Shown here: in pieces, positions 7,667 through 44,778 of the stretch
Numbering within the stretch: the stretch's first letter is position 1
Layout of the letters: the number at the start of each line of letters is the position of its first letter
The notes under the pieces: model-generated
The model's database searches: none
What the model was told of the DNA's origin: nothing
Seen by the model: only the letters and a program-made list of their open reading frames with translations
NCBI GenBank assembly: GCA_004551905.1
Contig: SFPL01000028.1
Coordinates: 1 to 62,109, forward strand
Reading direction: 5' to 3'
Length of the DNA stretch: 62,109 bases
Source: Lentisphaeraceae bacterium
Lineage (GTDB): Bacteria > Verrucomicrobiota > Kiritimatiellia > RFP12 > UBA1067
Translations under genes and position numbers: made by a program

Positions 7667-7673
7667 TTCCGAT

Positions 7674-8561
7674 TCAGTCGTGCCGTCCGTCCTTCCAAGC
7701 CGCCGAGCCGGGCATCCGCTTGAGGAGGTGCTGGCGCGGTGCCTTGAACATCGCCCCGTTCCAACCGAGGCGAAGGAGGAAAACGCGGAGGTCGTACTTC
7801 GCGCTTGCCTCGCTGTAGGGGCGGGGGTTCTTCGCGCTTGCCGCCTTCGCCGCCATCGCCTTGTGGACAATCGTGAGGGCGAGGAGGACGTTGGCGCGAA
7901 TTTCGCCCGCGTGGGTCGTCGCCTCGAAGAGGCGGAACTCGACCGTGTGCTTGCCGCCGTTCCAAAGGTTGTGGAGGTTGAGGGTGCGGTAGCGGGCCGA
8001 GCAGTAATGGTTGTAGCGGTCGCGCACCCCGTGGTAGTAGGCGTCCGCCAGGTTCTCCATCGTCGGGGTCGGGAGCTTCAGCATCTTCTCGACGAACTCG
8101 CGGTCGGTCTTGCGCGTGTACCAACCGAGGCGGTTCGCCGCCGTGCCGCACCCGCGCACGATCAGCTCCTCCTGCTTGTAGAAAATCTTGACGAGGTTCT
8201 GGATTTGCCTCGGGGTCATCCGCGCCGCGCCCACGTGGATGTGGAGGCCCGCACCGCCGCCCGTCCTTGCGCCCGCCCTCTTGAGGGCGCGGACAACCTC
8301 CTGCAGGGTGGCGATGTCCCCGATCTTGAGGATCGGGCTCACCGTCTCGCTCCCGCCCGAAACCGAGCCGTCGGTCTCGCAGTTCCACCTGCGCCCGTCG
8401 GGCATCTCGACCACCCAGTTGGAAAGGTGGCGGCCTTCGTAAAAGGCGCGTCCGCCCGTCACCTCCGCGACCACCTTCGCCGCCTTTGCGGTGCTGATCT
8501 TGTCGTACTCGAGCTCGACCCCGAAGGTCATCTCGCTGAGTTCCGCTTCCGTTATCGTCAT
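7674..8561 (-). CDS. amidoligase (Pfam Amidoligase_2-type, glutamine-synthetase-like fold), 295 aa
   Basis: FGVELEY...NCETDGSV...SPIL...GLHIHVG...ARYRTLNLHNL...HTVEFRLFEAT is the motif order I associate with the phage/ICE amidoligase family. First gene behind cassette C. Confidence 0.8.
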   Translation of the reverse strand: MTITEAELSEMTFGVELEYDKISTAKAAKVVAEVTGGRAFYEGRHLSNWVVEMPDGRRWNCETDGSVSGGSETVSPILKIGDIATLQEVVRALKRAGARTGGGAGLHIHVGAARMTPRQIQNLVKIFYKQEELIVRGCGTAANRLGWYTRKTDREFVEKMLKLPTPTMENLADAYYHGVRDRYNHYCSARYRTLNLHNLWNGGKHTVEFRLFEATTHAGEIRANVLLALTIVHKAMAAKAASAKNPRPYSEASAKYDLRVFLLRLGWNGAMFKAPRQHLLKRMPGSAAWKDGRHD

Positions 8562-8620
8562 CTTCTTGTTCCTTTCTTTTGTTTTTCTCGCGGAGGCCTG
8601 TCCCCCGCTTTTCGAGTCAC

Positions 8621-8649
8621 AGTATGCCGTAAGCTGCGGGTAATAGCAA
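8621..8649 (-). promoter_or_regulatory. cassette C leftward promoter (amidoligase operon)
   Basis: Minus strand TTGCTA-N17-CATACT. 60 nt upstream of ATG 8561. Confidence 0.55.
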
Positions 8650-8705
8650 CGGGGTATTTTGATATATTTTCATTATTTTTAATGCGGAATTATCACTTAT
8701 AGCCC

Positions 8706-8735
8706 TTGCAATCCGTTGAACTATTACGGCATAAT
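8706..8735 (+). promoter_or_regulatory. cassette C rightward promoter
   Basis: TTGCAA-N18-CATAAT. Fires toward the terminator at 8789-8841. Confidence 0.4.
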
Positions 8736-8788
8736 ACGGACGCTGGGATAGGGCCTCAGTTCGTTGCCCCCGAGGGGTGCGGAGAACG

Positions 8789-8841
8789 TAAAAACCGAAG
8801 AGCGGCATCAGCCCCGTTTCGTCGGGGTGATGTCGCTCTTC
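8789..8841 (-). terminator. intrinsic terminator after GGCT gene 8874-9335
   Basis: Minus strand GAAGAGCGACATCACCCCG-ACGAAA-CGGGGCTGATGCCGCTCTTC, then GGTTTTTAC. Confidence 0.65.
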
Positions 8842-8873
8842 GCCCATTAGGCGTTCGCGCTACGCCTTGTCGA

Positions 8874-9335
8874 TCAGCGGCGGTTGCGCCAGTCGCCGCC
8901 CTCGATCACCTTCGCGTCCTTCGGGAGCGAGTTCATGATGTAGACCCATGCGCGGATGCGTCCGCCATCGGGCGTAAACGCCTCGATCTCCTCGCGGCGG
9001 TAGAGTCGCGGGTAGCCCTCGAGCCGATCCATCGATGCGAAGCCCTCATCATCGACGGTCAGCAGCTCGCCGACGATCTTCGTCTCTCCCGCCTTGACGA
9101 AGGCGGGGAACCCGAAGCCCGTGTCGTAGATCGTGCCGTGCGTCCATGCGGGGTGTCGCCTCGCGCCTTTCGCCCAGTGGGCGTTGCCCTCGCCGGTGAG
9201 GAGCGTCCCGTAGACGAACACCTTGTGTTCGGCGCGGGGCGAGGTCGGCAGTCCGAGTTCGCGCTCCGCCCGCTCCCTCGCGAGGGGCGGGAGGTGCTTG
9301 ATCTCCCTCTTGAGCGTTTCGATGTCCTTGGTCAT
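8874..9335 (-). CDS. second gamma-glutamylcyclotransferase-like (AIG2/GGACT-type) protein, 153 aa
   Basis: KVFVYGTLLTGEGNAHW...GELLTVDDEGFASMDRLEGYPRLYRRE carries the YGTL opening and LDxxEGYP motif of the AIG2 branch. Followed by a terminator at 8789-8841. Confidence 0.75.
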   Translation of the reverse strand: MTKDIETLKREIKHLPPLARERAERELGLPTSPRAEHKVFVYGTLLTGEGNAHWAKGARRHPAWTHGTIYDTGFGFPAFVKAGETKIVGELLTVDDEGFASMDRLEGYPRLYRREEIEAFTPDGGRIRAWVYIMNSLPKDAKVIEGGDWRNRR

Positions 9336-9377
9336 CTTCTGTTCCTTTCTCGGCCGCTTCGGCGACCGTTCATTTTA

Positions 9378-9965
9378 TCATTTCCCCTCGGCGCGTCCCG
9401 CCGAAAGCCCCTGGTAGAATTCGCAGTTCGCCTTCTCATCCCACGAGCATTCCTCGTCGCAGGGCTGTTGGGAGAGCGGGCAGAAGTGCTTCGGCGGATC
9501 GTCCTCAACCTCGCCGACGCAGTCGATCCTCGTCTCGTCCGCCTCCTCGAATTCGGACACCTTGAGTTCGCCCGCGCCGAACTTTGCGCCGACGATCTCC
9601 TCGGCCTGCCGCTCGTCCTTCGCCTCGACCGTGAAGGTTCCGTGCATCCGCACCGAGACCGTCACCTCGTACTTCTTCGTCGCATCCATTTCCGTTTTTC
9701 TTTCCGTTCGTCTTGCCGCGACTTCGTTTCGGGGTGGTGGTGTATTCGCCTCCAATCGCACAAGGTTCACGTAGCGTTTCGACACTTGGATGAGGTGTCT
9801 GTGGTCGCCGTAGGAAATGAACCTCTCGTACTCCTCGATCTTGTCCTCGCGTCCGCTGTCCTTGAGGGCTTGGATCGTCATTTCGTAAATGTGCCTCACG
9901 TCGCAATTGTGGGCCTTGGGATTGTAGGTCACCGTCTTGTCGGTGAACGGTTTTCTTTTCGCCAT
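9378..9965 (-). CDS. hypothetical protein, 195 aa (start uncertain)
   Basis: Start set at MAKRKPFTDK (ATG 9963-9965, after AAAGAAAGGAATG). An internal MDATKKYEVTV with its own RBS-like GGAAAGAAAAACGGAA could be a second start. Cys-rich acidic C-terminus. Confidence 0.5.
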   Translation of the reverse strand: MAKRKPFTDKTVTYNPKAHNCDVRHIYEMTIQALKDSGREDKIEEYERFISYGDHRHLIQVSKRYVNLVRLEANTPPPRNEVAARRTERKTEMDATKKYEVTVSVRMHGTFTVEAKDERQAEEIVGAKFGAGELKVSEFEEADETRIDCVGEVEDDPPKHFCPLSQQPCDEECSWDEKANCEFYQGLSAGRAEGK

Positions 9966-9991
9966 CTTCGCATTCCTTTCTTTCGGGTGTT

Positions 9992-10020
9992 GCCCCGCCC
10001 CCGTTTCGGGGAGGCGGGGC
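9992..10020. repeat. intergenic GC hairpin (same family)
   Basis: GCCCCGCCCC...GAGGCGGGGC. Confidence 0.55.
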
Positions 10021-10030
10021 GGTGGGGTTT

Positions 10031-10237
10031 TTACTCGCAGTCGAAGTACCTCGCGCAGGTCGCGAGGAGGTTGTCGTAGTTCCCGCTCGTGCATTCCTTC
10101 GTGAACTGCTCGATGAGGTCGGCGCGTCCGTTCCGGCGGAGGAGTTGCCGCGCCCGCGCCATGATCGAGAATGCGTTTCCGTCTTCGCCGACGAGTTTCA
10201 GCTTGAGGTTGGTGATCGGTTCTTGTTGCGTTGCCAT
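10031..10237 (-). CDS. small phage protein, 68 aa
   Basis: MATQQEPITNLKLKLVGEDGNAFSIMARARQLLRRNGRADLIEQF. The GNAFxIM...LRRxG pattern recurs in small phage proteins in my memory, but I cannot name a family. Confidence 0.6.
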   Translation of the reverse strand: MATQQEPITNLKLKLVGEDGNAFSIMARARQLLRRNGRADLIEQFTKECTSGNYDNLLATCARYFDCE

Positions 10238-10263
10238 TTTCGTTTTCCTTTCTTTCGGGTGTT

Positions 10264-10290
10264 GCCCGCCCCCCGCGTGGAGGGGCGGGC
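10264..10290. repeat. intergenic GC hairpin (same family)
   Basis: GCCCGCCCC-CCGCGTGGA-GGGGCGGGC. Confidence 0.6.
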
Positions 10291-10298
10291 GGTTTTCG

Positions 10299-10544
10299 TC
10301 AGGCCTCTTCGGTTGCCTTCTTGGCGTTCTTCAAGGCGCGGATCTGGAAGGCAAGGTAGCGAAGCTCAAGCGCAATCGCGTCAAGCTCGTTGGGAATCCA
10401 AACCACCGCCTTCTGGTCGGCGGTCAGCTTGTTGATCAGGATTCCCGCCCGCGCTCCCTTTTTCGCGAGGGCGTCCTTGATCGCCTCGTGGAGCTTCATC
10501 TGCCCCGCCTTGACCCGCACCATCTTCATCTTCCGTTGTTGCAT
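10299..10544 (-). CDS. small conserved phage protein, 81 aa (paralogue of 6468-6704)
   Basis: MQQRKMKMVRVKAGQMKLHEAIKDALAKKGARAG... The ATG at 10542-10544 sits at the same position in the repeated leader as the amidoligase ATG in cassette C. Confidence 0.65.
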   Translation of the reverse strand: MQQRKMKMVRVKAGQMKLHEAIKDALAKKGARAGILINKLTADQKAVVWIPNELDAIALELRYLAFQIRALKNAKKATEEA

Positions 10545-10602
10545 CTTCTTGACCTTTCTTTTGTTTTTCTCGCGGAGGCCTGTCCCCCGCTTTTCGAGTC
10601 AC

Positions 10603-10631
10603 AGTATGCCGTAAGCTGCGGGTAATAGCAA
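10603..10631 (-). promoter_or_regulatory. cassette D leftward promoter
   Basis: Identical to 8621-8649 (inside the 187-bp direct repeat). Confidence 0.55.
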
Positions 10632-10687
10632 CGGGGTATTTTGATATATTTTCATTATTTTTAATACGGAATTATCACTTATAGCCC

Positions 10688-10717
10688 TTGCAATCCGTTG
10701 AACTATTACGGCATAAT
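10688..10717 (+). promoter_or_regulatory. cassette D rightward promoter
   Basis: Identical to 8706-8735. Confidence 0.4.
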
Positions 10718-10770
10718 ACGGACGCTGGGATAGGGCCTCCGTTGGCGGCCCCACGGGGGCGCGGAAGAAC

Positions 10771-10798
10771 GGAAAACGCCTCGGCCGAAACCGAGGCG
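10771..10798 (-). terminator. intrinsic terminator after 10823-11095
   Basis: Minus strand CGCCTCGG-TTTCGG-CCGAGGCG, then TTTTCC. Confidence 0.6.
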
Positions 10799-10822
10799 CG
10801 AAGGCGGACGCTGTCCGTCAAG

Positions 10823-11095
10823 TCATGCGTCTTGGATTCCCTCAAGCCGCTCGACGAGCGCGTCGAAGATCGGCTTGCCGTCGGCGATCACCTTGTTCAC
10901 CGCTTCGATGCTTTCGCGCAGGCCCGTCGGTGCGTCGGGCGGCAGATCGCCCAGGAGCAGGTCGCCGTTCCAGTTCGCGAAGGTGTCCATCGCCGTGGCC
11001 ATCTCCGTGCTTTGCAAAACCCCGTCGCAGAATTCGTGCAGCTCCTTGCTGACGCTCTTCGCCTTGCCGTCCTTGCAGTTCGTTTCCATTTTCAT
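10823..11095 (-). CDS. hypothetical protein, 90 aa
   Basis: MKMETNCKDGKAKSVSKELHEFCDGVLQS... Same-strand ORF bracketed by a GC hairpin (11115-11138) and a terminator (10771-10798). Confidence 0.55.
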   Translation of the reverse strand: MKMETNCKDGKAKSVSKELHEFCDGVLQSTEMATAMDTFANWNGDLLLGDLPPDAPTGLRESIEAVNKVIADGKPIFDALVERLEGIQDA

Positions 11096-11114
11096 TTCCT
11101 TTCGTTTGAGGTTT

Positions 11115-11138
11115 GCCCGCCCCCTCGCGGAGGCGGGC
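11115..11138. repeat. intergenic GC hairpin (same family)
   Basis: GCCCGCC-CCCTCGCGGA-GGCGGGC. Confidence 0.55.
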
Positions 11139-11147
11139 GGTGAATCG

Positions 11148-11507
11148 TCAGCCCATCTTCTCCTCTTCGCGGCGGCGGTTGTTCGCCACGATATCGTCGA
11201 ACCAGCGTCCGCCGACTTGGAAGCGCGGAATCACAATCGCGTCCACGTTCTCGATGTCGGAAAGCTTGACGCTCACGATGTGGAGGTCGTCCCGATAGGC
11301 GTTGTCGCCCGTCAGCCCGTAGGCGAGGTTCATCGTCGCGCCCGTGATGACGTAGGCGACCTCCTGCTTCATCGGCGTGTAGCCCTTGATCCAGTCGAAG
11401 AGCTGCGTGAGCGATTCTTCGTCGGTCGTGAGGCCCTCCCAGGTGAGTGCCGATTCCTTTTCCAGCGCGTCGAGCTGCGCCTTGGTTTGCACCGTGATCT
11501 TCTTCAT
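11148..11507 (-). CDS. hypothetical protein, 119 aa
   Basis: Start moved to MKKITVQTKAQLDALEKESALTWEG (ATG 11505-11507). First gene behind cassette E. The upstream part of the 217-aa track ORF runs through the AT-rich promoter region. Confidence 0.6.
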   Translation of the reverse strand: MKKITVQTKAQLDALEKESALTWEGLTTDEESLTQLFDWIKGYTPMKQEVAYVITGATMNLAYGLTGDNAYRDDLHIVSVKLSDIENVDAIVIPRFQVGGRWFDDIVANNRRREEEKMG

Positions 11508-11566
11508 CTTCCTGTCCTTTCTTTTGAGTTTTTCCGCGAAGGCCTGCCCCTCGCTTTTCGAGACAC

Positions 11567-11595
11567 ATGATGCCGTAATTCCGTGGTAATAGCAA
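11567..11595 (-). promoter_or_regulatory. cassette E leftward promoter
   Basis: Minus strand TTGCTA-N17-CATCAT. 60 nt upstream of ATG 11507. Confidence 0.55.
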
Positions 11596-11647
11596 CGGCC
11601 TATTTGAAAATAAATTATTATTTTTCTACTGGATTTATGAACTATGA

Positions 11648-11771
11648 TTACGGCATACTGTCGGACGATGGGATAGGGACCCGATTCGCGGCCCCCGTGG
11701 GGCGGCTTCAAAGAATCGACCGCGAGGCAATCGCCCCTCGGGCTGTAGGCACCACGCCTATTATGCCGTAA
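11648..11771. repeat. 124-bp element, inverted copy
   Basis: TTACGGCATACTGTCGGACGATGGGATAGGG...GGCACCACGCCTATTATGCCGTAA. Opposite orientation relative to the flanking genes compared with 6863-6985. Confidence 0.8.
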
Positions 11772-11788
11772 ACGGCGAATCATATCCA
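11760..11788 (-). promoter_or_regulatory. cassette E distal leftward promoter
   Basis: Minus strand TGGATA-N17-CATAAT. Faces a TTACGGCATACT -10 at 11648-11659 (+). Confidence 0.4.
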
Positions 11789-11849
11789 GCGGAATAATCA
11801 TGAAAAAAGCGGGCGCACCGATCCCGCAGACCGATGCGCCCGCCGTGGG

Positions 11850-12335
11850 TCACTTGACCGTGCAGTCGGTGCATTGCCCCGTCGAGCATTGCCCGTCCGC
11901 GCACTCGCCGCCCTTGGGGTTGCAGTTCCCGTCGGGGCAGTCGCTGTCCGTACAACCGCCGTCGGGACACTCGCCGTCCTTCTTCTCGGCGGGCGGAGGC
12001 GGAACGATCTCCTTGCCCGTGGAGAGAGTGTCGCTCGTCCCGTCGAGCTTGTCGACGAGGCGGTCGAACACCTCCTGCGAGATCACGTGGAGCTGCGCGG
12101 CCCGCTCCGGCGTGAGCTTGCCGTCGGCGACCATGCGCTCGACGTAGTTGCTGTAGGCGGCGCGACCGCCCACCTCGTAGGCGAAGCGCATCACGTCCGC
12201 CACCTCCGAGCGGATCTCCGCCCGCTTCTCCGGAGTGACTGCCGTGGTGCAGCCCGTGCCGAGACCGGCGCACAGCGCAACCATCGTGACCAACGCGGCG
12301 ACGAGCCGCACCTTCATCTTCTTCTGGGAATCCAT
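11850..12335 (-). CDS. lipoprotein with Cys-rich C-terminal tail, 161 aa
   Basis: KVRLVAALVTMVALCAGLGTGC resembles a signal peptide plus lipobox. The C-terminus has repeated CxDGxC units (CPDGGCTDSDCPDGNCNPKGGECADGQCSTGQCTDC). Confidence 0.65.
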   Translation of the reverse strand: MDSQKKMKVRLVAALVTMVALCAGLGTGCTTAVTPEKRAEIRSEVADVMRFAYEVGGRAAYSNYVERMVADGKLTPERAAQLHVISQEVFDRLVDKLDGTSDTLSTGKEIVPPPPAEKKDGECPDGGCTDSDCPDGNCNPKGGECADGQCSTGQCTDCTVK

Positions 12336-12380
12336 AGCTGGATCGTCCTTTCGCTTTTGTGTTTTCCAAGACCGCGACGG

Positions 12381-12608
12381 TCACCTGCCGACGCTGATCA
12401 AGCTGAGTGATTTGGAGTCGCTCCAGTCGGGCGATCCCGACTTGATGATCTCCGTCTTGAGCGCACCGACCGTCATGCCGTCCTCGCGCTTGAGGGCGGT
12501 CTTGTCGGTCGGCTCGTAGTAGTGCCTCTCGGTGATGCACTGGCTGGCGCAGCCCCCGATCATGTCGAGGGCCGCGCCGAGCGCGAGGACGGCGAGTGTC
12601 CGCCTCAC
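12381..12608 (-). CDS. small lipoprotein, 75 aa (GTG start)
   Basis: GTG at 12606-12608 overlaps the stop of 12605-13081 (GTGA). (V)RRTLAVLALGAALDMIGGCAS looks like a signal peptide plus lipobox Cys. Confidence 0.5.
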   Translation of the reverse strand: MRRTLAVLALGAALDMIGGCASQCITERHYYEPTDKTALKREDGMTVGALKTEIIKSGSPDWSDSKSLSLISVGR

Positions 12609-37124: not shown

Positions 37125-39401
37125 TCACCGTTCACGTGCCTTGCGGAGTTCGGAGAGCTTCACCTTGACCCTCGGCTTCTTCTGGACCTGCTGATCCGTT
37201 CCCTCGAGGACGCATCCGCACATCGAAGCGGCGACCGCGTTGCCGACGATTCCGTCGAACCAGTGGTTGTCCTTCGCCTCCGGGCGCATCTTCCACTCCT
37301 CGACCTTTCGCCCGCGCCCCTCGGTCTTGACGCGGTATTCGGCGGTGAGGTGTTCGGCGAAGAGCAGGTGCGCCTCCGGGCTTCTCCCCCAGAGGGAGAG
37401 CGACCCCTTGTCGCCGAGCGAGGTGAGGATGCGGCTTGCCACAAAGCTCTTCCAGTAGTTCGTGTCGAAGATGACGTGCCGCACGGCCCGCCGGCCCCGG
37501 ATGTTCGGGATGCGCCAGTTGTGGCCGACGCGGTCGCCCGCCGTCTTCTTGTACTCGCTCATCGGCTTCGAGGACGCGCCGATGTACTTGCCGTGGCTCG
37601 GAAGGATGATGTTCGCGAACGCCGACTCGCGGCAGAACTGGTACACGATCTCGGTCGACTGGCCCCAGTTCGCGTCGACGAGGCAACGCTCGATCCGCAT
37701 GGACGCGCCGTCGTCCCGTGTGTATTCATGCGAGAGATAGCGTTCCGTCAGCTCCTTGAGGCCCGCGTAGAGGCATCCTTCGAGGCCCGTCCTCGGGTGC
37801 TTCGACTGCAGCGTCGGGTTCGCGTCGGCGAGGGTGAAGTACCGCCGCCGCTGGTCGGGCCACGCCCCGTAGTCAACGACGGTCCCGGAGAAATCGTCGC
37901 TCCACGCGCACACGACGAAGAAGAGGAGCGTCTTCTGCACGTCGATGAACATCGTGACGTGCGTCGCCGAGACGGGGATCGCGCTCTGGGAGAGTCCGTT
38001 GAGCTTGTTGACGATCCCGTCCACGGTGAGCTGTTCTTCCGTCCCCAAGTCCTCCGGCAGCGGGTCGTTCTGGTACTCCGCCCAGAACGCCGCCTCGTCG
38101 GTGAGCTTGAGGTTCATCGCGTGCTGGATCGCGCTGATCTCGTCGTAGTTGTGGCGGGCGGGCCACGACACCTTCGCCCCCGCATCCATCTCCTCGCGGT
38201 GCTGGCGGTAGAACTCGGTCGCCGCCGCGAACGTGCCTTTCTCCCGCAGCTCGTCGGCGCGGAGGTCGGCGTAGCAGTTCCACAGATCCTCGTTCGTCGG
38301 CATCTGGTAGAGCATCTTGCACCGTTCCCCGTTCCATTCGGGATGCTTCGACTTGTCGAGGATCTGCTCGGCCATGTCGCCGGGGCGGATGACCGTGCAG
38401 GGCATGATGCCCGATATCTTCTTCCCCGGACCCGCAAGGCCGAGGATGTCGCCCGCGAGGACGCGGACGCGCTTGCGGGTCTGCTCCAGCGACCCCGCCG
38501 ACTCGCTCGTCTGCGGATCGTCGATCACGACGAACTCCGGGCGGATCGTCCGCCCGTCCGGCTTCTTGTACTTCATGCCTCGGATGCGGCCCGTGATGCC
38601 GGCGACGCGGACGAGGACTCCCGACGAGGCGGCCCCGCGTATCGTCGGGAGGACGATCTCGTTCGCCGTCCACGTGATGCGTGTGCGTTCGCCCTTGTAG
38701 AGCTGTCCCGCGCACCGGTTGGCGATGCCTTCGAGGCAGGAGATCGGGTAGCACACCTCCGGAAAGTCGGCGGCGAGATGCTCGTTCACCTCCAGCTCGG
38801 TCTTGATCGAGTCGAGAATCTCCAGCGCGGCGGACTCGGACGCGCCCACGACCACGACGAACTCGCGGTGCCCGTAGAGCATTGCCCAGATCGCGGCGGT
38901 CTCGGTGAGCGAGGACTTGCCCGAGCCACGGGACATCGCCAGCGCGAAGAGGCCGCCCTTGAGGACGGACTTCTGTATCTTCTCGATGGCGCGGAGGTGG
39001 TCTTCCGACCATTCGAGGACGTACACCTCCGGGAAGTACGTCTCGCAGAATTTCCGGAAGTCGAGACGGCACGACTCCTTGCGCTCCTCGTTTTCGACTG
39101 CGGGCAGCTCTCCGATGTCGCGTCCTTCGAGCGACCGCTCCGACGAGCGTCGGGCCGCGTCCGCCCGCACCGCGTCGTAGCCCTGCGGCTCGTCCTCGTC
39201 GGGCGTGTTGTGTCGGTCGACGAGCCACGCGACGTAGCTGTAGAAGTTCATGCACCGGCTGTCATCGCGGCTTGCGACGCGGTAGCCGCCCTGGTCGAAG
39301 TGCCGGTAGATCTGCGTCGAACTCACGACCGTGCCGAGTTCGGTCGAGTTCATGAGCCGCACCATCTCGGTGGGCTTCACCTTGGAGAGGTTAAGAGGCA
39401 T
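37125..39401 (-). CDS. terL: terminase large subunit, 758 aa
   Basis: Walker A-like ALAMSRGSGKSS and Walker B-like EFVVIDDPQT. Large size. Sits just upstream of the portal block. N-terminal about 100 aa extension. Confidence 0.85.
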   Translation of the reverse strand: MPLNLSKVKPTEMVRLMNSTELGTVVSSTQIYRHFDQGGYRVASRDDSRCMNFYSYVAWLVDRHNTPDEDEPQGYDAVRADAARRSSERSLEGRDIGELPAVENEERKESCRLDFRKFCETYFPEVYVLEWSEDHLRAIEKIQKSVLKGGLFALAMSRGSGKSSLTETAAIWAMLYGHREFVVVVGASESAALEILDSIKTELEVNEHLAADFPEVCYPISCLEGIANRCAGQLYKGERTRITWTANEIVLPTIRGAASSGVLVRVAGITGRIRGMKYKKPDGRTIRPEFVVIDDPQTSESAGSLEQTRKRVRVLAGDILGLAGPGKKISGIMPCTVIRPGDMAEQILDKSKHPEWNGERCKMLYQMPTNEDLWNCYADLRADELREKGTFAAATEFYRQHREEMDAGAKVSWPARHNYDEISAIQHAMNLKLTDEAAFWAEYQNDPLPEDLGTEEQLTVDGIVNKLNGLSQSAIPVSATHVTMFIDVQKTLLFFVVCAWSDDFSGTVVDYGAWPDQRRRYFTLADANPTLQSKHPRTGLEGCLYAGLKELTERYLSHEYTRDDGASMRIERCLVDANWGQSTEIVYQFCRESAFANIILPSHGKYIGASSKPMSEYKKTAGDRVGHNWRIPNIRGRRAVRHVIFDTNYWKSFVASRILTSLGDKGSLSLWGRSPEAHLLFAEHLTAEYRVKTEGRGRKVEEWKMRPEAKDNHWFDGIVGNAVAASMCGCVLEGTDQQVQKKPRVKVKLSELRKARER

Positions 39402-39591
39402 GGCGGCTGTTCTCCTTTGAAAGCACCCATGCGGCGTAGAGGAAGATGTCCACCGTGCCGTCGGCGTTCGCGGGTGCGCCGGCGGCGATGTCGGCGGCGA
39501 CGGTCTCCTCCGAAATGGTGCGCGAACCCGCCGCCTTCAGGGCACGGACGAGTTCCTCCGGCTTGAGCGCATGGGCGTTGTATTCAGACAT
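39391..39591 (-). CDS. possible small terminase / DNA-binding protein, 66 aa
   Basis: Overlaps the terL start by 11 nt. Assignment is by position only. Shares an FxYxAWV motif with the terL N-terminal extension. Confidence 0.4.
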   Translation of the reverse strand: MSEYNAHALKPEELVRALKAAGSRTISEETVAADIAAGAPANADGTVDIFLYAAWVLSKENSRHAS

Positions 39592-39625: not shown

Positions 39626-39654
39626 TTGATAACCTCCGTCGTTTACGGCATCAT
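39626..39654 (+). promoter_or_regulatory. phage consensus promoter for the HARE-HTH gene
   Basis: TTGATA-N17-CATCAT, with TTACGG abutting the -10. ATG of 39691-40053 lies 37 nt downstream. Confidence 0.55.
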
Positions 39655-39690
39655 GTCGGCAGTCAAACCCAAACGGAAAGGACATGACGA

Positions 39691-40053
39691 ATGAGTGCCA
39701 AGAAGAAGAACACGACCGCAGCCAAGACAACGGCGAAGGCGAAGCCCGCCGCCCCCAAGGCAACCGCGAAGGAGCGGAAGCCCGGAGGCGGCAAGGAGGC
39801 CCCGACGGAGAGGAAGCTCTCGCTCCTCTCGGCGGCGGCCGCCGTCCTCGCCGAAAGCGACGAGCCCCTCAACTGCAAGCGCATGATCGAGCTTGCCAAG
39901 TCCAAGGGGCTGTGGTCGCCGCGCGCGGGCAAGACCCCGGAGCAGACGCTGTACTCCGCAATCGTTCGCGAGATCAAGGACAAGGGCGAGTCCTCCCGCT
40001 TCCGCCGGTCGCCTCTGCGGGGACACTACCTCCCGCCCGCCGCCGCCAACTGA
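39691..40053 (+). CDS. HARE-HTH DNA-binding protein with Lys/Ala/Pro-rich N-terminal tail, 120 aa
   Basis: LSLLSAAAAVLAESDEPLNCKRMIELAKSKGLWSPRAGKTPEQTLYSAIVREIKDKGESSRFRR is the bacterial HARE-HTH pattern (GKTPExTLxxxIxxxIxxxGxxSRF). N-terminus AKKKNTTAAKTTAKAKPAAPKATAK is histone-H1-like. Confidence 0.75.
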   Translation: MSAKKKNTTAAKTTAKAKPAAPKATAKERKPGGGKEAPTERKLSLLSAAAAVLAESDEPLNCKRMIELAKSKGLWSPRAGKTPEQTLYSAIVREIKDKGESSRFRRSPLRGHYLPPAAAN

Positions 40054-40261
40054 ATATGCCCCACACGGCGAACACGAGGTGGACTGCGTCCAGCACCATC
40101 CTCGCCCAGAGGTGCTGGTACGCGTCCACCCCGATCCACGCCGCGTTGACGGCGGTCCAGATGTAGAAGCACGAGACGCGCTTCTTCACGTTCAGCGCGG
40201 TTCCGAGGAGGGACAGCGCGGTGAGCGACCACAGGAAGGTCTGGGCGGCGGCCTCATTCAT
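39974..40261 (-). CDS. three-TM PnuC-like (NMN-transporter family) half-size membrane protein, 95 aa
   Basis: LLGTALNVKKRVSCFYIWTAVNAAWIGVDAYQHLWARMVLDAVHLVFAVWGIFSW follows the L..K...W..W...N......Y......L.....G...W pattern of PnuC repeats. Start overlaps the metK stop (ATGAATGA). Confidence 0.5.
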   Translation of the reverse strand: MNEAAAQTFLWSLTALSLLGTALNVKKRVSCFYIWTAVNAAWIGVDAYQHLWARMVLDAVHLVFAVWGIFSWRRRAGGSVPAEATGGSGRTRPCP

Positions 40262-41276
40262 GGCCGAAGAGTCCTTCCATGCAGCGGGCGGCGTAGCCGG
40301 GGAGCCGGAGTCCGAGCGTCTCGATGACGTGCGATGGCGGGTCGCTCTCCGTGTGCGTCTCGAGGAGGTTGTCCGCCGCGTCGAAGTAGCTGACGCGGAT
40401 CTCGCTCCTGCCGATGCAGCAGCTGATGCCGCAGCGCACCTCGTCGAGTCCGTGGGCCTTGAGGTATTCCAACGCCTTCATGCGGGCGAGGACATTCAGG
40501 GTCACGTCCGCCTTGCTCGGGTCCTTGCCCCACGGAGAGCCGCCCCCGATCTTGGAGTTCCCGCCGTAGAAGTCGGCGACGAGCTTTCGGCCGGTCGTGC
40601 CGCAGTCGCCTATCGGCCCGTGCTTCACATACCGCCCCGTCCCGTTCACGATCACCCTGCAGTCCGACCCGACCGCCGATTTCACGTAATCGGCGATCAC
40701 GCGCTTCGTGTCCTCCTCGGTCGCGGGATCGAGCGGGATCGCGACCACGCACTCGATGGCGCGTCCGTCCTCGGTCGTGACCTGCGTCTTCACGTCGAGG
40801 CCGCCGAAGCCGCTCCGGTAGAGCGCGTTCGCCGTCCCCCGCGCAAGCCAGTAGTCAAGCGGCATGAACCCGCGCCGCACGTCGTTGACGGCAAGCCCCC
40901 AGAAGATCCCCTGGTCGCCCCAGCCCTCGCGGTTCACTCCCTGCGTGATGTCCTCCGACTGCTGCGAGATGTGGATCGTCACCTCCACGCCGCTCCCGCT
41001 GATTACGTTGCCCTCGCCCCACTTGGCGAGGTAATCGTCCGTGTAGCCAACCTTGCAGATCGCCTCGCGGCAGAACTCGGCGAGTTCGGCGTTCGTGAAG
41101 CGGTAGGCCGATGTGACCTCGCCGGACAGGGTGCAGAAGCAGTCCTTCAGCTGCACTTCGAGGGCGACGCGGGCGTTCGGGTCGCGTTCGAGGTAGCGGT
41201 CGAGGATGTAGGATGCGATGTAGTCGCAGGTGCGGTCGGGATGGCCGACGGCGCAGTATTCTGATGTTCGGATCAT
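40254..41276 (-). CDS. metK: S-adenosylmethionine synthetase (divergent MetK), 340 aa
   Basis: Start moved to MIRTSEYCAVGHPDRTCDYIASYILD. Motifs GHPD, GWGDQGIFWG (GAGDQG), GPIGDCGTTGRKLVADFYGG, GGGSPWGKDPSKAD all appear in canonical MetK order. Confidence 0.9.
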   Translation of the reverse strand: MIRTSEYCAVGHPDRTCDYIASYILDRYLERDPNARVALEVQLKDCFCTLSGEVTSAYRFTNAELAEFCREAICKVGYTDDYLAKWGEGNVISGSGVEVTIHISQQSEDITQGVNREGWGDQGIFWGLAVNDVRRGFMPLDYWLARGTANALYRSGFGGLDVKTQVTTEDGRAIECVVAIPLDPATEEDTKRVIADYVKSAVGSDCRVIVNGTGRYVKHGPIGDCGTTGRKLVADFYGGNSKIGGGSPWGKDPSKADVTLNVLARMKALEYLKAHGLDEVRCGISCCIGRSEIRVSYFDAADNLLETHTESDPPSHVIETLGLRLPGYAARCMEGLFGHE

Positions 41277-41451
41277 TGTCTTTTCCTTTCGTTTATGGCC
41301 ATGATAGAATGTCGTGTGGATCTCCATGTCTCCGGTATATCTCGGGGTGCTCTCACACTGTCTCTCACTCCCAATCGGGCGACAAGTGCCGTAAATGCGC
41401 GGTATATCGGGCTTTTACGGCAGATGTCGCCGCGTCGGGCGTGTGTTTCCG

Positions 41452-42699
41452 TCAAATGTCGGATACTGTGTCCTCCACCTGGTCTGCCGCGTTTGCACAC
41501 TCCTTCGACGGAGTGAGCTTCTGCCAGTCGCAGCCCTCGCCGTGGACGTGCTCTGCCCAGCGGCGGCGGATCACGTCGCAGTACTTCGGGTCGAGTTCGA
41601 CGCACCTGCACACGCGGCCGGTCTGCTGGCAGGCGATGATCGTCGAGCCGCTCCCGCCGAAGGTATCGAGAACGACGTCGCCCCGCTTGGTGGAGTTCTT
41701 GAGGAGGTACACGAGCATCTCCGTCGGCTTCATCGTCGGGTGGACGTCGTTCTTCTTCGGCTTGTTGAACTCCATGACCGTGGTCTGGGCGCGGTCGCCG
41801 TACCAGCTGTGCGACGCGCCTTCCTTCCAGCCGTACAGGCACGGCTCGTGAATCCACTGGTAGTCCTGACGTCCGAGGACGAGGGCGTTCTTCTTCCACA
41901 CGAGGCACTCGCGCACCCGCAGCCCCACGTCGAAACACGCGCCACGGAAGTTGTAGCCCTCCGAGTCGGCGTGGAACACGTAGAACGCCGCGCCGGGCTT
42001 CATCGCCTTTTCGGCGCACCCGAAGGCGGTGCGCAGGAACTCGCGGAACTTCGAGTCCTCCATCGAGTCGTTCTGGATCGTGAGACCGTTCGACCCCTCG
42101 TAGGCCACGTTGTAGGGCGGGTCGGTGAGCCAGCAGTCGACCGTTCCGTCGCCCGCTATCTTCGACACGTCCTCGCGCCTCGTCGAGTCGCCGCAGAGGA
42201 GGAGGTGCTGCCCGAGGACGTACACCTCGCCCGGCTTCGACACTGCGACTTCCGGGGCTTCGGGCGCATCGTCGGGATTGGTCTGCCCCATCTCGTCCGC
42301 CGTGCCGCCGAGGAGTTCGTCGAGTTCGGACGTGTCGAACCCGAGCGCACCCATGTCGAAGCCGGCCTCCTGCAGGGCCTTCATCTCGGCCTTCAGCAGA
42401 TCCATGTCCCACTTGGCGACCTCGCCGGTCTTGTTGTCGGCGATCCGCAGGGCCTTCTCCTGCTCCGGGGTGAGGTGGTCGACCACGATGGCGGGGATCG
42501 ACTCCGCGCCGATCTCCTTCATGGCCTTCACGCGGGTGTGGCCGTTGATGATCACGAGGTCGCGGTTTACGATGATCGCGCCGATGAAACCGTACTCGCG
42601 GATGGACGCGACCACGCCCGCGACCGCCTCGTCGTTCACACGGGGGTTGTTCGGATAGGGCTTCAAGTCCGCTATCTTCAAGTTCTGAACCGTTGGCAT
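41452..42699 (-). CDS. ParB-like nuclease domain fused to N6/N4 DNA methyltransferase (DPPY), 415 aa
   Basis: Start moved to MPTVQNLKIADLKPYPNNPR (ParB-N opening)...GHTRVKA. Then CWLTDPPYNV (motif IV) and VLDTFGGSGST (motif I). This is the usual phage ParB-MTase architecture. Confidence 0.9.
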   Translation of the reverse strand: MPTVQNLKIADLKPYPNNPRVNDEAVAGVVASIREYGFIGAIIVNRDLVIINGHTRVKAMKEIGAESIPAIVVDHLTPEQEKALRIADNKTGEVAKWDMDLLKAEMKALQEAGFDMGALGFDTSELDELLGGTADEMGQTNPDDAPEAPEVAVSKPGEVYVLGQHLLLCGDSTRREDVSKIAGDGTVDCWLTDPPYNVAYEGSNGLTIQNDSMEDSKFREFLRTAFGCAEKAMKPGAAFYVFHADSEGYNFRGACFDVGLRVRECLVWKKNALVLGRQDYQWIHEPCLYGWKEGASHSWYGDRAQTTVMEFNKPKKNDVHPTMKPTEMLVYLLKNSTKRGDVVLDTFGGSGSTIIACQQTGRVCRCVELDPKYCDVIRRRWAEHVHGEGCDWQKLTPSKECANAADQVEDTVSDI

Positions 42700-43020
42700 C
42701 TTCCTTCTCCTTGCGCGGCCCGCCTCGCGGCGCAACCGCCTGTTTTCAGTCCCTTTCGGGGTTTCGCCCGGTAAAACAAACTCTCGTCAGTAGTCCGGCT
42801 CCTTCCCGCGCCCTCTTCTCCAGAGGCCCCAGGGGAGGAACCAAGGCCGATTTTCGAGGATCGCGCCAGTTCGCCCCACACGGGCTTCCTTTCGGGGGGA
42901 GCGGGGTGGTGCGGCGGGCTTCGCACGGCGCGAACACGGGGCAACCTGGGCGGCATCCGGCGCATTCTGGTCGGGCGCGGAGGTTGCTTCGGGTGTCCGC
43001 AAGGTGCTGACCCGCCGCAA

Positions 43021-43650: not shown

Positions 43651-43728
43651 TAAATACGACACATGGCGGCCGAAATCGGAGGCCGTTTCGGCTTTGGTTC
43701 AAGGGTGCGTTTTGGTATAATATTGGGC

Positions 43729-44778
43729 ATGGGTCTACATGGAAAGAACAGAATCGCGATGGGGCTGGCGACACTCTCGCTGGCCTTTTCCTTGCACACC
43801 CTCGCGCAGAGCGACAACCTCGAACTCGGCGCACCGGGGACGGCGGACAAGGTGATCGACCGCGAGGGCTATGCGCTCGGGTACAAGACCGCGTGGAAGA
43901 CTGCCCGATGGGTCACGTACCGTCTCACGGACGATGAGGTGCTGAACCAGGTGGCGAGGCGGTCGGAGGAGTTCGCGCCCGACCCGCAGATCGCCGGCGG
44001 CCCGCAGCTCGAGGACTACCGGGGGAGCGGCTACGACCGTGGGCATCTCGCGCCGGCGGCGGACATGAAGTGGTCGCAGCGGGCGATGACCGAGTGCTTC
44101 TACCTCTCCAACATGGTTCCGCAGGATCGGGAGAACAACGGCGGCATCTGGAACGAGATCGAGAACACGGTGCGCGGCTTCGCCTGCGCCGAGGGCTCGG
44201 TGTTCGTCGCGACGGGACCGATCACACCCGAACGGCCCGTGCTGTCGGTGGGCAAGGGGCGCGTCGCCGTGCCGACGGAGCTGTGGAAGGTCGTGTACGA
44301 CGAGACCCCGCCGCAGAAGATGATCGGCTTCATCGTCCCGAACAGGAACGTCAAGGGCAAGCCGAAGGACTACGCGTGTTCCGTCGCCGAGGTCGAGAGG
44401 AAAACGGGGCTTCGCTTCTTCCCGAAGCTCACGGGCGGGGACTCGCTCAAGCGGTCGTTCGACGCATCGGCATGGGACTGGTCGAAGAGCCAGCGGCGGC
44501 GCGTCGCCGCCGCGCCCAGGGCGGCGCAGACGGCGACTGCATCGAAGGTCTCGGATTCGTACTTCGCGGGCATCCGCGAGGAGTACAGGGCGGGCGGGGC
44601 GATGCCCGTCGGAAGACGCAAGGCCGCGCCCGTGTGCGACAAGTGGCCCGATACCGGATGGTGGCTGTCGACCAACTCCATGAAGCGGCACAACCGCAAG
44701 TGCGAGAACTACAGAAAGACACGCGGCTATCCCTGCCGGAAGGACGAGGGCAGCCCGTGCGGGAAATGCGGAGGTTGA
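43729..44778 (+). CDS. secreted DNA/RNA non-specific endonuclease (NucA/EndoG family) with C-terminal Cys-rich tail, 349 aa
   Basis: Start at MGLHGKNRIAMGLATLSLAFSLHTLAQS (signal peptide). Catalytic YDRGHLAPAADM and SNMVPQ. C-terminus KRHNRKCENYRKTRGYPCRKDEGSPCGKCGG. TATAAT at 43716-43721 ends 7 nt before the ATG. Confidence 0.85.
   Translation: MGLHGKNRIAMGLATLSLAFSLHTLAQSDNLELGAPGTADKVIDREGYALGYKTAWKTARWVTYRLTDDEVLNQVARRSEEFAPDPQIAGGPQLEDYRGSGYDRGHLAPAADMKWSQRAMTECFYLSNMVPQDRENNGGIWNEIENTVRGFACAEGSVFVATGPITPERPVLSVGKGRVAVPTELWKVVYDETPPQKMIGFIVPNRNVKGKPKDYACSVAEVERKTGLRFFPKLTGGDSLKRSFDASAWDWSKSQRRRVAAAPRAAQTATASKVSDSYFAGIREEYRAGGAMPVGRRKAAPVCDKWPDTGWWLSTNSMKRHNRKCENYRKTRGYPCRKDEGSPCGKCGG

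Follow-up and report, generated by a model that had tools for sequence, protein, structure and literature searches.

NARP3, a phage operon that joins a PnuC-like NR transporter to a NadR-like enzyme (Escherichia phage TrudiRoth Bas30_86/87; PMC13464706), resembles the operon described here in that a phage Pnu-family membrane protein shares an operon with a cytoplasmic enzyme, one that joins a small metabolite to an adenine-nucleotide moiety, a cofactor pool being rebuilt during infection. The NARP3 transporter, however, is of full length (~24 kDa, nine TM helices according to AlphaFold 3) and forms a trimer, whereas ours is a 95-aa bundle of three TM helices; it works with NadR to yield NAD+, whereas the 95-aa protein is paired with MetK, which would yield SAM; and its function has been demonstrated, whereas we infer that of our operon from the genes. 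With PnuC and PnuT (PDB 4QTN; PMC5749112) the 95-aa protein, hereafter half-PnuC, shares homology to both bundles, the (W/F)xxW(x)3(D/N) motif, the gate Trp and a gene position adjoining a cytoplasmic enzyme able in principle to trap the substrate. It differs in having neither the second bundle nor TM4, and its neighbour is an adenosyltransferase, not a kinase. SemiSWEETs are comparable in size (about 80-95 aa), in their three TM helices forming one bundle and in the expected parallel homodimer, so that half-PnuC is to PnuC what SemiSWEET is to SWEET, although they are a separate sequence family and the structural match is weak. The short "PnuC-like nicotinamide riboside transporters" of actinophages (Gordonia phage Fazel gp71, 83 aa; Gordonia phage Avazak, 84 aa; Mycobacterium phage Shrimp, 100 aa) belong to the same half-size family, and their BFVD models superpose at TM 0.68-0.80; their annotations are silent on the half size, and we found no functional study of these short proteins in the literature. 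Fazel gp71 matches the half-PnuC family HMM over its full length (41 bits) without the FxxWxxxN motif and, in the one context checked, lies among genes of replication and nucleotide metabolism, not beside MetK.

Annotations of Streptococcus phages already place MetK next to DNA methyltransferases and upstream of the terminase, so that this arrangement is not new. In Streptococcus prophages (phi1207.3, Javan phages, 12/111phiA; PMC8223999) metK lies just upstream of the terminase, near genes for an N6 methylase of ParB type and a C5 methylase, and its product (33% identity) falls in phrog_1569, the short phage clade to which the MetK studied here belongs. The order in phi1207.3 is MetK, HNH, a hypothetical gene, DNA methylase (44% identical to the ParB-methyltransferase studied here), C5 methylase and TerS; in this one genome inspected an HNH endonuclease thus follows MetK and the region holds no Pnu-like gene, and the hosts are Firmicutes. 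Overall, MetK homologues are found in 131 GenBank phage records. Phage T3, too, acts on the SAM pool of its host in relation to restriction-modification and BREX, but in the opposite direction: its SAM lyase (SAMase) destroys SAM and inhibits MetK, leaving T3 unmethylated and the SAM-dependent defence disarmed (bioRxiv 10.1101/2023.02.27.530186; PMC8406200), whereas our phage would seem to produce SAM and to methylate its own DNA.

The window, i.e. the whole stretch of 62,109 nt that was analysed, is contig SFPL01000028.1 of assembly GCA_004551905.1 (Lentisphaeraceae bacterium), with coordinates given on the forward strand (Table 1).

Table 1. Features of the operon and of its surroundings in the window.
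Feature	Coordinates	Strand	Remarks
C5-cytosine DNA methyltransferase, 549 aa	34955..36604	-	PF00145 4.3e-35; TIGR00675 dcm 2.2e-35, above cut-off
TerL, lambda gpA type	37125..39401	-	PF20454 GpA_nuclease 9.9e-22; phrog_38, phrog_15
66-aa ORF	39391..39591	-	directly upstream of TerL, which it overlaps; weak PHROG match only
HARE-HTH promoter	39626..39654	+	TTGATA-17-CATCAT with TTACGG extension; promoter scan
HARE-HTH small protein	39691..40053	+	PF05066 E=3.5e-10, above cut-off; convergent with the operon
Half-size ("semi") PnuC-like membrane protein, 95 aa	39974..40261	-	three TM helices, one triple-helix bundle
S-adenosylmethionine synthetase MetK, 340 aa	40254..41276	-	divergent, phage clade; ORF open to 41327
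Inverted repeat / RNA hairpin	41378..41431	-	between methyltransferase and metK; GCGACAnnTGCCGTAAA-N16-TTTACGGCAnnTGTCGC
ParB_N + N6-adenine (DPPY) DNA methyltransferase	41452..42699	-	first operon gene; probable start ATG 42699
DNA/RNA non-specific endonuclease	43663..44778		moron-like gene nearby

An earlier, sequence-only reading had described a self-contained block of four genes: methyltransferase, MetK, short transporter and HARE-HTH protein. All four, with their overlaps, lie where it had placed them; five details are corrected, among them the self-containment of the block, which does not hold. The methyltransferase, metK and half-PnuC genes share strand and direction, run into the small ORF and then TerL, and sit within a co-directional array leading from the replication genes to the terminase, so that the block belongs to a longer, conserved array reaching the terminase genes. 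TerL opens the packaging and structural genes downstream, and the gpA terminase and lambda-type portal mark the type of phage. The 66-aa ORF is present in nearly all loci of the lineage (38-77% identity), always immediately before TerL, and is possibly a small terminase or a packaging accessory gene. The C5 methyltransferase, the second methyltransferase of the phage and already noticed in that reading, is inserted between TerL and the lambda-type portal gene, at a distance from the block of about 3 kb rather than 4 kb.

The identity of the first gene as a ParB-N6(DPPY) methyltransferase was confirmed by Pfam (N6_N4_Mtase E=1.6e-24, ParB_N E=2.2e-7), by its PHROG match (phrog_498 at 7e-162) and by the motif LTDPPYNV. 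Its ORF is open to TTG 42735 (41452-42735, minus strand), with homology beginning at the internal ATG 42699, the end coordinate given in the sequence-only reading, and orthologues 57-86% identical occupy the same position in most related loci. MetK had been called divergent but motif-complete, and all its catalytic motifs indeed align with those of solved MetKs. The N and C domains of S-AdoMet_synt score above the Pfam cut-off and the M domain below it, and the PHROG match is to phrog_1569 at 5e-74. Against TIGR01034, MetK reaches 162 bits, below the NCBIfam equivalog cut-off of 309, a shortfall that we list against our preferred reading. The true start is most likely ATG 41276, judging by the RBS and AATGATCC context kept in relatives and by a PHROG match beginning at residue 18. 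The phage thus has, as proposed, two DNA methyltransferases and a MetK of its own, whose activity is probable from its sequence.

An 8-nt overlap (ATGAATGA) joins the metK stop to the half-PnuC ATG, and a stop/start overlap of 1-14 nt is found in 33 of the 37 non-redundant metK/half-PnuC junctions. The coupling pointed out in the sequence-only reading is therefore strongly conserved, and its persistence in almost every relative suggests that MetK and half-PnuC are made together. A neighbourhood search recovered the pair in dozens of related prophages, in the order ParB-methyltransferase, MetK, half-PnuC, reversed HARE-HTH, small ORF and gpA-type TerL. Over 40 loci show this synteny; some come from viral contigs, the others from MAGs or genomes of Kiritimatiellia, Verrucomicrobiota and Lentisphaerae/Victivallales, among them a prophage of Victivallis vadensis DSM 14823; the hosts of the lineage are PVC-superphylum bacteria of gut and rumen. 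Identity across the syntenic loci ranges from about 60% to 91% for TerL and from 43% to 80% for MetK. Some members of the lineage keep half-PnuC without MetK (loci L010, L049 and L050).

The 95-aa ORF, proposed as a three-TM PnuC-like protein, proved to be a genuine gene and a conserved one: it has 32 close homologues, and its family comprises ~1,600 clusters at 50% identity, mostly of 65-115 aa. It matches positions 114-175 of the 175 of PF04973 (E=2.8e-8, above cut-off), and the family profile matches both repeats (bundles) of N. mucosa PnuC 4QTN (E=2.4e-6). The (W/F)xxWxxxN motif (FxxWxxxN in our protein) and a C-terminal Trp are invariant or nearly so in the family; in PnuC/PnuT the same motif binds the ligand and the Trp forms the inner gate (PMC5749112). 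The AlphaFold2 model has three helices (pLDDT 77). The predicted topology is positive-inside, N-terminus out and C-terminus in. When the model was searched against PDB structures, SemiSWEET chains came first, weakly (Foldseek TM ~0.47, E ~1), and no MtN3/PQ-loop Pfam match was found; in BFVD the best matches were viral PnuC-like proteins of 75-101 aa (TM 0.68-0.80). Having neither the second bundle nor the linker helix TM4, half-PnuC could not function as a monomer, and its single copy in the window fits a homodimer.

Half-PnuC has no general tie to MetK: the latter was nearby in only ~15 of 90 sampled family clusters, nearly all from one phage lineage, and some lineage members lack it. The 75 clusters without MetK are an argument for a rather unlikely alternative, in which half-PnuC is an independent facilitator of nucleosides or vitamins, such as nicotinamide riboside or deoxynucleosides, that feeds NAD+ or DNA-precursor pools and merely shares a pre-terminase accessory hotspot with MetK and the methyltransferases. 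Its neighbours in other phages (DNA polymerase A, DUF3987 primase-helicases, SSB, ThyX, UDG) are in keeping with this, as are the Fazel member, which lies between SSB and ThyX and near a dCMP deaminase, and the import of NR by full-length phage PnuC-like proteins (PMC13464706). Terminases (TerL) of several types are moreover found within two genes in roughly 14 of 75 representative loci without MetK. The pre-terminase region is a general accessory-gene hotspot, so that the association with methyltransferases may be partly positional. On the other hand, a DNA methyltransferase is immediately adjacent in 11 of 74 MetK-less representative loci, about threefold above the 3.8 expected at random within loci, although in most MetK-less clusters no methyltransferase adjoins half-PnuC either. 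DNA methyltransferases are nonetheless its commonest neighbours there, and N6_N4_Mtase ranks first among the Pfam families of the neighbours. The overlap with metK, kept down to 43% MetK identity, argues for selected co-expression and not for chance adjacency, and no NadR, kinase or NAD-salvage gene was detected among the Pfam-scanned ORFs of the window (a subset of its genes) or among the most frequent neighbour families of related loci.

The partners of half-PnuC across lineages include SAM consumers, i.e. methyltransferases and, in single loci, a radical-SAM enzyme (L034), not solely a SAM producer; in another single locus it adjoins a QueC-like enzyme (L036). Together with the excess of adjacent methyltransferases, these cases favour a link to SAM use beyond the lineage, in line with our preferred reading. 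One might thus speculate that half-PnuC leaks by-products of SAM out of the cell (S-adenosylhomocysteine, methylthioadenosine, 5'-deoxyadenosine), which would free the phage methyltransferases, and in other phages the radical-SAM enzymes, from product inhibition. Pnu transporters are passive, their direction being set by the gradient alone (PMC5749112), and these by-products are nucleosides, near the known Pnu substrates. We nevertheless consider such a role improbable: S-adenosylhomocysteine and methylthioadenosine are already removed enzymatically in most bacteria, and translational coupling to MetK suits supply no less than disposal.

The inverted repeat between the methyltransferase and metK consists of two opposed TTACGGCA words, at 41387(-) and 41415(+), which had been described as degenerate; both copies are exact. 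The window holds 14 copies of the word, where 0.82 would be expected, and the repeat folds at -31.3 kcal/mol (z=-6.7), with no T-run 3' of the hairpin. Alignment of the 14 sites revealed no -35/-10 elements at this pair, nor did the promoter scan find a promoter-like site upstream of metK. Analogous repeats (TGCCG.TAA...TTA.CGGCA) stand in the same place in L044 and L048; the exact TTACGGCA word is not conserved in relatives.

The layout of the array bears on the view that the MetK module serves lysogenic conversion, altering SAM-dependent physiology of the host, and that the membrane protein is a moron without a transport role, acting for example in superinfection exclusion or by interfering with a transporter of the host. 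Exclusion is a frequent role of small phage membrane proteins. Other moron-like genes lie near the block, e.g. the endonuclease, and a prophage metK of Streptococcus agalactiae influenced autoaggregation and glycocalyx (PMC8223999). However, overlapping genes in a replication-to-terminase array, with no promoter of their own, are typical of the lytic cycle, and the Pnu ligand motif and gate Trp, kept across ~1,600 clusters, point to a conserved function of transport type, so that this view in its two parts together has little chance of being correct.

The HARE-HTH gene was confirmed by PF05066 and by its coordinates as convergent with the operon, overlapping the half-PnuC gene by 80 nt (39974-40053), and its position and orientation are conserved across the lineage. 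Its proposed expression from a phage consensus promoter is upheld at the level of the sequence: the 14 aligned TTACGGCA sites yield the consensus TTGCtA-N17-(TTACGG)CATAMT, and the same promoter class recurs in repeated divergent promoter regions by the amidoligase and GGACT genes. By this layout the gene reads as a separate convergent transcription unit. The AKP-rich tail attributed to the protein does exist, as a basic K/A/P/T stretch, but it is N-terminal. Among relatives the HARE domain is constant and the N-terminal region variable, being a basic tail in close relatives and a small beta-domain with an acidic linker in distant ones. The PF05066 domain is common to ASXL, HB1, restriction endonucleases and RNA polymerase delta; the HARE-HTH of ASXL1, a protein that also has a lysine-rich N-terminus adjacent to this domain, bound 6mA DNA in vitro (PMC6591016), which backs the proposal of a reader of modified DNA, and the N6-adenine methyltransferase alongside matches the comparative-genomic proposal for the domain. 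Unlike the known HARE-HTH proteins, the phage one is small and stand-alone, convergent, and has its own promoter. Given the separate unit, the shared promoter class and the unconserved N-terminus, a reader role is only a hypothesis.

For phages the enzymes of the block are ordinary; the uncharacterised part is the half-transporter, together with its tie to SAM. Our preferred reading, held tentatively and at somewhat short of an even chance, is of an operon for self-methylation that brings its own SAM supply and a dimeric facilitator feeding the SAM pool; that estimate applies jointly to this full mechanism and to the block as a conserved accessory operon ahead of the packaging genes in a temperate lambda-like phage lineage. 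By analogy with SemiSWEETs, half-PnuC would form a parallel homodimer and act as a passive facilitator of a small solute of the SAM cycle. The likeliest direction would be uptake of a precursor, e.g. methionine or an adenosyl compound, trapped as SAM by MetK, since the Pnu rule is facilitated diffusion with trapping by a neighbouring cytoplasmic enzyme (PnuC/NadR, PnuT/kinase, phage NARP3). It counts against this reading that the Pnu substrates characterised so far (NR, thiamine) belong to the cationic vitamins and nucleosides and not to the amino acids. The HARE-HTH protein would be a separately regulated small DNA-binding protein, possibly a regulator or a reader of the 6mA mark. During lytic growth, phage MetK would raise SAM synthesis and sustain a burst of methylation, in which the N6-A and C5 methyltransferases would methylate progeny DNA before packaging, and the progeny may thereby be protected from restriction in the next host.

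All the genes named in the sequence-only reading were recovered in a six-frame ORF list and by profile searches (see table). The block genes are co-directional and overlapping. The 8-nt overlap claimed between the stop of metK and the start of the gene for the 95-aa half-PnuC, a three-helix PnuC-like protein, is visible in the junction itself, which reads ATGAATGA, and the convergent HARE-HTH gene does overlap the half-PnuC gene by 80 nt at their 3' ends. Contigs with close and with distant homologues share one gene order, namely ParB-methyltransferase, MetK, half-PnuC, reversed HARE-HTH, a 65-70-aa ORF and gpA-type TerL. Prophages with the block occur in Kiritimatiellia, Verrucomicrobiota and Lentisphaerae/Victivallales MAGs from gut and rumen, hosts being placed by a scan of one genome per species, and also in Victivallis vadensis DSM 14823, on contig NZ_QEKH01000025.1 at about 20.9-33.1 kb. 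Of the 37 non-redundant junctions, 33 have the metK stop overlapping the start of the half-PnuC gene (1-14 nt); the others have gaps of 4-13 nt (3 junctions) or 170 nt (1 junction). As these overlaps are kept while MetK identity to the window protein falls from 80% to 43%, they are strong evidence, at the level of gene arrangement, that the two genes are co-translated. A few members of the lineage (loci L010, L049 and L050) have a half-PnuC without MetK. The remark that such a coupling had not been seen described stands: as far as we found, neither the coupled pair nor so large a half-Pnu family has been reported before, and the enzyme part of the block adds one more case to a known arrangement.

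Features of the phage discussed in the text, with the evidence for each or its setting
Feature	Position	Strand	Evidence or setting
Divergent promoter repeat copies	6696-6820, 8555-8679, 10537-10661, 11501-11625
GGACT/AIG2-like gamma-glutamyl cyclotransferase homologues (two)	8874-9335 and 7073-7870	-	Among divergent promoter repeats
Amidoligase_2 protein	7674-8561	-	Among divergent promoter repeats
C5-cytosine methyltransferase, 549 aa	34955-36604	-	Profile searches; between TerL and lambda-type portal gene
gpA-type large terminase (TerL)	37125-39401		Beside C5 methyltransferase
HARE-HTH promoter	39626-39654		Promoter scan; same class as divergent promoter regions at 5-12 kb
HARE-HTH protein (ORF)	39691-40053	+	PF05066
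Half-PnuC, 95 aa	39974-40261	-	Last 62 positions of PF04973, above curated cut-off
MetK homologue (ORF)	40254-41327	-	Pfam profile search
ParB-fused N6/N4 methyltransferase (ORF)	41452-42735	-	ParB_N + N6_N4_Mtase; phrog_498, 7e-162
DNA/RNA non-specific endonuclease	43663-44778	+	PF01223, 1.2e-49

The phage does bring two methyltransferases, as first proposed. The ParB-fused enzyme has both expected domains, its translation contains LTDPPYNV with the DPPY catalytic motif, and it belongs to phrog_498. The C5 enzyme is unusually long, with its PF00145 match split in two, and is inserted inside the packaging module. Between the replication genes and the ParB-methyltransferase, on the opposite strand, lies the non-specific endonuclease; G+C is slightly lower and the skew reversed in this stretch, which therefore looks like a moron insertion.

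MetK membership was judged on TIGR01034, PF00438, PF02772 and PF02773, and on the motifs of methionine adenosyltransferases (GHPDK, the acidic residue of the ACE motif, the QQSPDI gating loop, GAGDQG, DxKxQV, GDxGLTGRK and the GGGAFSGKDPSKVD P-loop). The N and C domains score 69.7 and 55.4 bits, both above the Pfam cut-offs, and the central domain falls below its own (22.2 bits against 29); positions 2-360 of the 377 in TIGR01034 nevertheless cover residues 3-340, that is, the three-domain architecture over its full length. Alignment with the solved MetKs 5t8s and 7r2w (E ~1e-36) gives GHPDR, ALEV, QQSEDITQGV, GWGDQG, DVKTQVT, GDCGTTGRK and GGGSPWGKDPSKAD, so that all signature motifs are retained, including the metal-binding glutamate, the DxKxQV lysine and the GGGxxxGKDPSK P-loop. 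The TIGR01034 score (162.4 bits) lies below the curated equivalog cut-off of 309.4, and phrog_1569, a phage family without assigned function, fits far better (250.8 bits). The alignment thus shows a predicted catalytic site that is intact in a divergent protein, just as the sequence-only reading had it. Since the ribosome-binding site and start context at ATG 41276 are conserved among relatives, the protein probably has 340 residues.

By tblastn, 131 GenBank phage records contain a MetK homologue; most are Streptococcus prophages, in which the gene is annotated as S-adenosylmethionine synthetase. In Streptococcus phi1207.3 the order is MetK, HNH, a hypothetical gene, DNA methylase, C5 methylase and small terminase, the DNA methylase being 44% identical to the ParB-methyltransferase of the window. 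Annotations, at least, thus already record the combination of a phage MetK and two methyltransferases preceding the packaging genes. One study has linked a prophage metK of this kind to host aggregation phenotypes (PMC8223999). A limited literature search found nothing on phage MetK as a counter-defence or on SAM-depleting defences. Matches to Helicobacter "phage MetK" were set aside as they may be host DNA and not phage cargo, the host metK adjoining the commonest prophage integration site of H. pylori, according to one paper.

The 95-aa ORF, read at first as a three-TM half transporter, is a real gene: PF04973 matches it at 34.4 bits (cut-off 27.3), three helices are predicted, and a word-indexed search returned 32 homologues of 75-95 aa, all with PF04973. 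Residues W11, G20, N24, C31, F32, W35, W42, D46, R54, D58 and G68 are invariant across the homologue alignment. A narrow family profile (A1) had no match among PDB sequences, whereas a broader one built on 81 diverse members (A2) did find the PnuC of N. mucosa (4QTN, E=2.4e-6), over residues 162-238 in the second triple-helix bundle and, weakly, over residues 42-111 in the first. In this comparison F32-x-x-W35-x-x-x-N39 aligns with W182/W185/N189 of 4QTN. In Pnu transporters WxxW(x)3D/N is the ligand-binding motif, and a tryptophan at the C-terminal end of the last helix forms the inner gate (PMC5749112). W35, N39 and F32 are conserved in at least 90% of the 81 members, and the invariant W72 occupies the position of the gate tryptophan. 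The first ligand-motif position is F and not W, a change tolerated in PnuT (PMC5749112). The alignments show, then, that the residues predicted to form the Pnu ligand site and gate are kept, a point to be weighed against the rival possibility that the half-PnuC has a lysogen-directed or non-transport role.

PF04973 is matched only at positions 114-175 of 175, the window holds a single half-PnuC gene, and the seven-helix Pnu core (two triple-helix bundles and TM4 in one chain) is not found in the protein. With its 95 residues and three predicted helices, it is thus best described, from profile and model, as a half-size relative corresponding to one bundle of the Pnu fold, and not as a canonical member. 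AlphaFold2 with a deep alignment predicts three helices (pLDDT 77). The top PDB matches of this model in Foldseek are SemiSWEET chains, at weak scores (E ~1, TM 0.44-0.49), and the MtN3_slv/PQ-loop (SemiSWEET) profile of Pfam does not match the protein at E<=0.1; in the viral structure library BFVD the top matches are PnuC-like proteins, many of 75-101 aa (target-normalised TM 0.68-0.80). The charges read from the sequence, KKR in loop 1 and RRR after helix 3, would fit an N-out, C-in topology. By analogy with SemiSWEETs, which pair with themselves, we infer that a pore would need self-pairing of the half-PnuC. Alignments A2, A3 and A4 separate two subfamilies, in which R54...D58 of helix 3 (RAxLD) is exchanged for Q...F/L (QAxLF); the joint change of the two positions points to a salt bridge within the helix and not to contacts with the ligand. 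In both subfamilies D46 shows little or no variation.

The family is large. When 1.84 billion cluster representatives were scanned in full with HMMER, 1,597 clusters passed E<=1e-3 and 246 passed E<=1e-10; the best 150 fall almost entirely within 65-115 aa. Searching 50,697 GenBank phage records by tblastn with five half-PnuC sequences gave no match even at E<=1. The absence that this implied was overturned by the BFVD matches and by gp71 of Gordonia phage Fazel (83 aa, annotated "PnuC-like nicotinamide riboside transporter"), which the family HMM matches over its whole length; as the family is thus present in cultured phages, tblastn is too insensitive for such short, divergent proteins. Other short PnuC-like BFVD entries come from Gordonia and Mycobacterium phages, an iridovirus and an entomopoxvirus. 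W8W1N3 of Invertebrate iridescent virus 30 (101 aa) and Q9EN45 (AMV001) of Amsacta moorei entomopoxvirus (80 aa) can be superposed on the model of the half-PnuC at a target-normalised TM of 0.56-0.69, with non-significant E values (0.19 and 0.25); one of the two carries the annotation nicotinamide mononucleotide transporter. The family is already in the databases, so far auto-annotated and largely from phages, and a limited literature search found no paper describing a half-size PnuC.

Beyond the lineage, a degenerate DNA pattern of the family motif led to more than 120 further viral contigs, and an HMM filter gave 167 loci in 90 clusters at 80% identity. MetK is nearby in about 15 of these 90 sampled clusters, nearly all from the gpA-TerL lineage. 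Strict co-occurrence is thus rejected, the other 75 lacking MetK; the anticipated pairing of MetK with a short PnuC in phages holds as a conserved trait of the lineage, but not across the family. We then scanned the neighbours in one representative locus for each MetK-less cluster (n=75). Among immediate neighbours N6_N4_Mtase ranks first with 10 members, to which 2 C5 methylases are added, followed by DNA polymerase A, DUF3987 and ParB_N with 3 each; two genes away, methyltransferases, ParB_N and terminases of several types dominate. In a within-locus control on the 74 loci in which five or more genes were called, 29 of them containing a methyltransferase, this gene is adjacent to the half-PnuC in 11 loci (3.8 expected) and no more than two genes away in 14 (7.6 expected).

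These counts bear on a rival explanation, that the half-PnuC is an unrelated nucleoside or vitamin facilitator merely sharing a hotspot. The half-PnuC indeed tends to occupy the accessory region ahead of the terminase, and position and function are therefore not cleanly separated in this association; against the rival may be set the excess of adjacent methyltransferases and, within the lineage, the overlapping junctions with metK. No trapping kinase or NadR was found among the neighbour proteins scanned, the wider sets comprising the most frequent Pfam families only, and the gene coupled to the half-PnuC is metK, so that the kinase co-location of Pnu transporters is not seen. The recurring partners are, by their domains, SAM users, which would suit uptake of a SAM precursor and also a second rival, in which adenosyl by-products that inhibit these enzymes would be exported. 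Two low-G+C phages, unrelated to each other and both with a ParB-like gene upstream, have the half-PnuC closely preceding the terminase genes; in one (locus L034:4961-5983) the gene directly before it encodes a radical-SAM enzyme, and in the other (locus L036:2829-3800) it stands one gene downstream of a QueC-like PP-loop enzyme, which hints at links to other DNA-modification pathways.

The HARE-HTH gene is always convergent with the operon in the lineage, and the promoter of its own that had been proposed was found, in the TTACGGCA-type class. PF05066 matches residues 44-104 (40.6 bits, cut-off 25.9). The domain and the K/A/P-rich segment described as a tail are both present, but the segment is N-terminal. 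Across the lineage the HARE-HTH domain is constant and the N-terminus variable: basic and K/A/P/T-rich in close relatives, and in distant ones made up of a small beta-rich domain and, after it, an acidic linker. The small domain has the consensus IxVGxxxxVKVGRNxVEVxV...WxVKSxxTGREF and the linker is E/P/A/T-rich (loci L007, L011, L049, L050, L057 and others), which brings to mind the acidic region in the delta subunit of RNA polymerase. HARE-HTH has been proposed as a reader of adenine-methylated DNA, and that of ASXL1 bound 6mA DNA in vitro (PMC6591016); a role as reader or regulator is plausible here by analogy.

The window has 14 occurrences of the word TTACGGCA where 0.82 would be expected, and the aligned sites show the word to be the upstream extension of the -10 element in a repeated promoter, TTGCtA-N17-(TTACGG)CATAMT. 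Four divergent promoter regions of 125-213 nt, each with TTACGGCA-type promoters, lie in the window at 4500-12600, and the 1982-nt spacing of the repeats suggests a duplicated cassette. The two copies upstream of metK, first described as degenerate, are in fact exact; they are opposed, stand without -35 and -10 elements, and form an inverted repeat with 17-bp arms (RNA fold -31.3 kcal/mol, z=-6.7) and no T-run after it. A riboswitch or other known RNA at this place was rejected, the hairpin consisting of the phage's own promoter word, and the whole window holding no match at the gathering score of an Rfam family. In 31 relatives the corresponding intergenic region does not contain the exact word, and a conserved role of the word in regulating metK was thus rejected; loci L044 and L048 alone carry an inverted repeat of loose resemblance upstream of metK.

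Overall, what the sequence-only reading observed is confirmed, and its interpretation is supported in part. Pnu transporters work by facilitated diffusion, followed by trapping via a neighbouring cytoplasmic enzyme (PMC5749112), and in NARP3 a full-length phage PnuC-like transporter and a NadR-like enzyme rebuild NAD+ (PMC13464706). By analogy with these systems, in the reading that we prefer, a precursor taken up by the cell would be captured as SAM by the coupled MetK. The phage would methylate its own DNA before packaging with its two methyltransferases, its own MetK would boost SAM synthesis, and a dimeric, passive half-PnuC facilitator would move a solute of the SAM cycle. A bolder proposal is less likely, and we put it forward as a long shot: that "SemiPnuC" is a large, mostly viral, homodimeric half-Pnu family, standing by itself as the unit from which PnuC is built, in the way that SemiSWEET relates to SWEET, and that with MetK it forms in PVC phages a two-gene SAM-reconstitution pathway, by passive precursor uptake and an adenosylation trap, which would fuel self-methylation as a SAM counterpart of NARP3.

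Phages are known to destroy SAM (the T3 SAMase) or to rebuild NAD+ (NARP1-3), and a dedicated, conserved operon that makes SAM, and possibly imports its precursor, would mirror these. The module is experimentally accessible, being present also in a prophage of the cultured V. vadensis DSM 14823. Half-Pnu proteins would constitute a new class of viral auxiliary membrane proteins, and this three-helix family of roughly 1,600 clusters would offer a minimal model of the evolution and working of Pnu- and SWEET-type transporters. A SAM-making operon of this kind would mean that the supply of methyl donor can limit the self-protection of phages against restriction.
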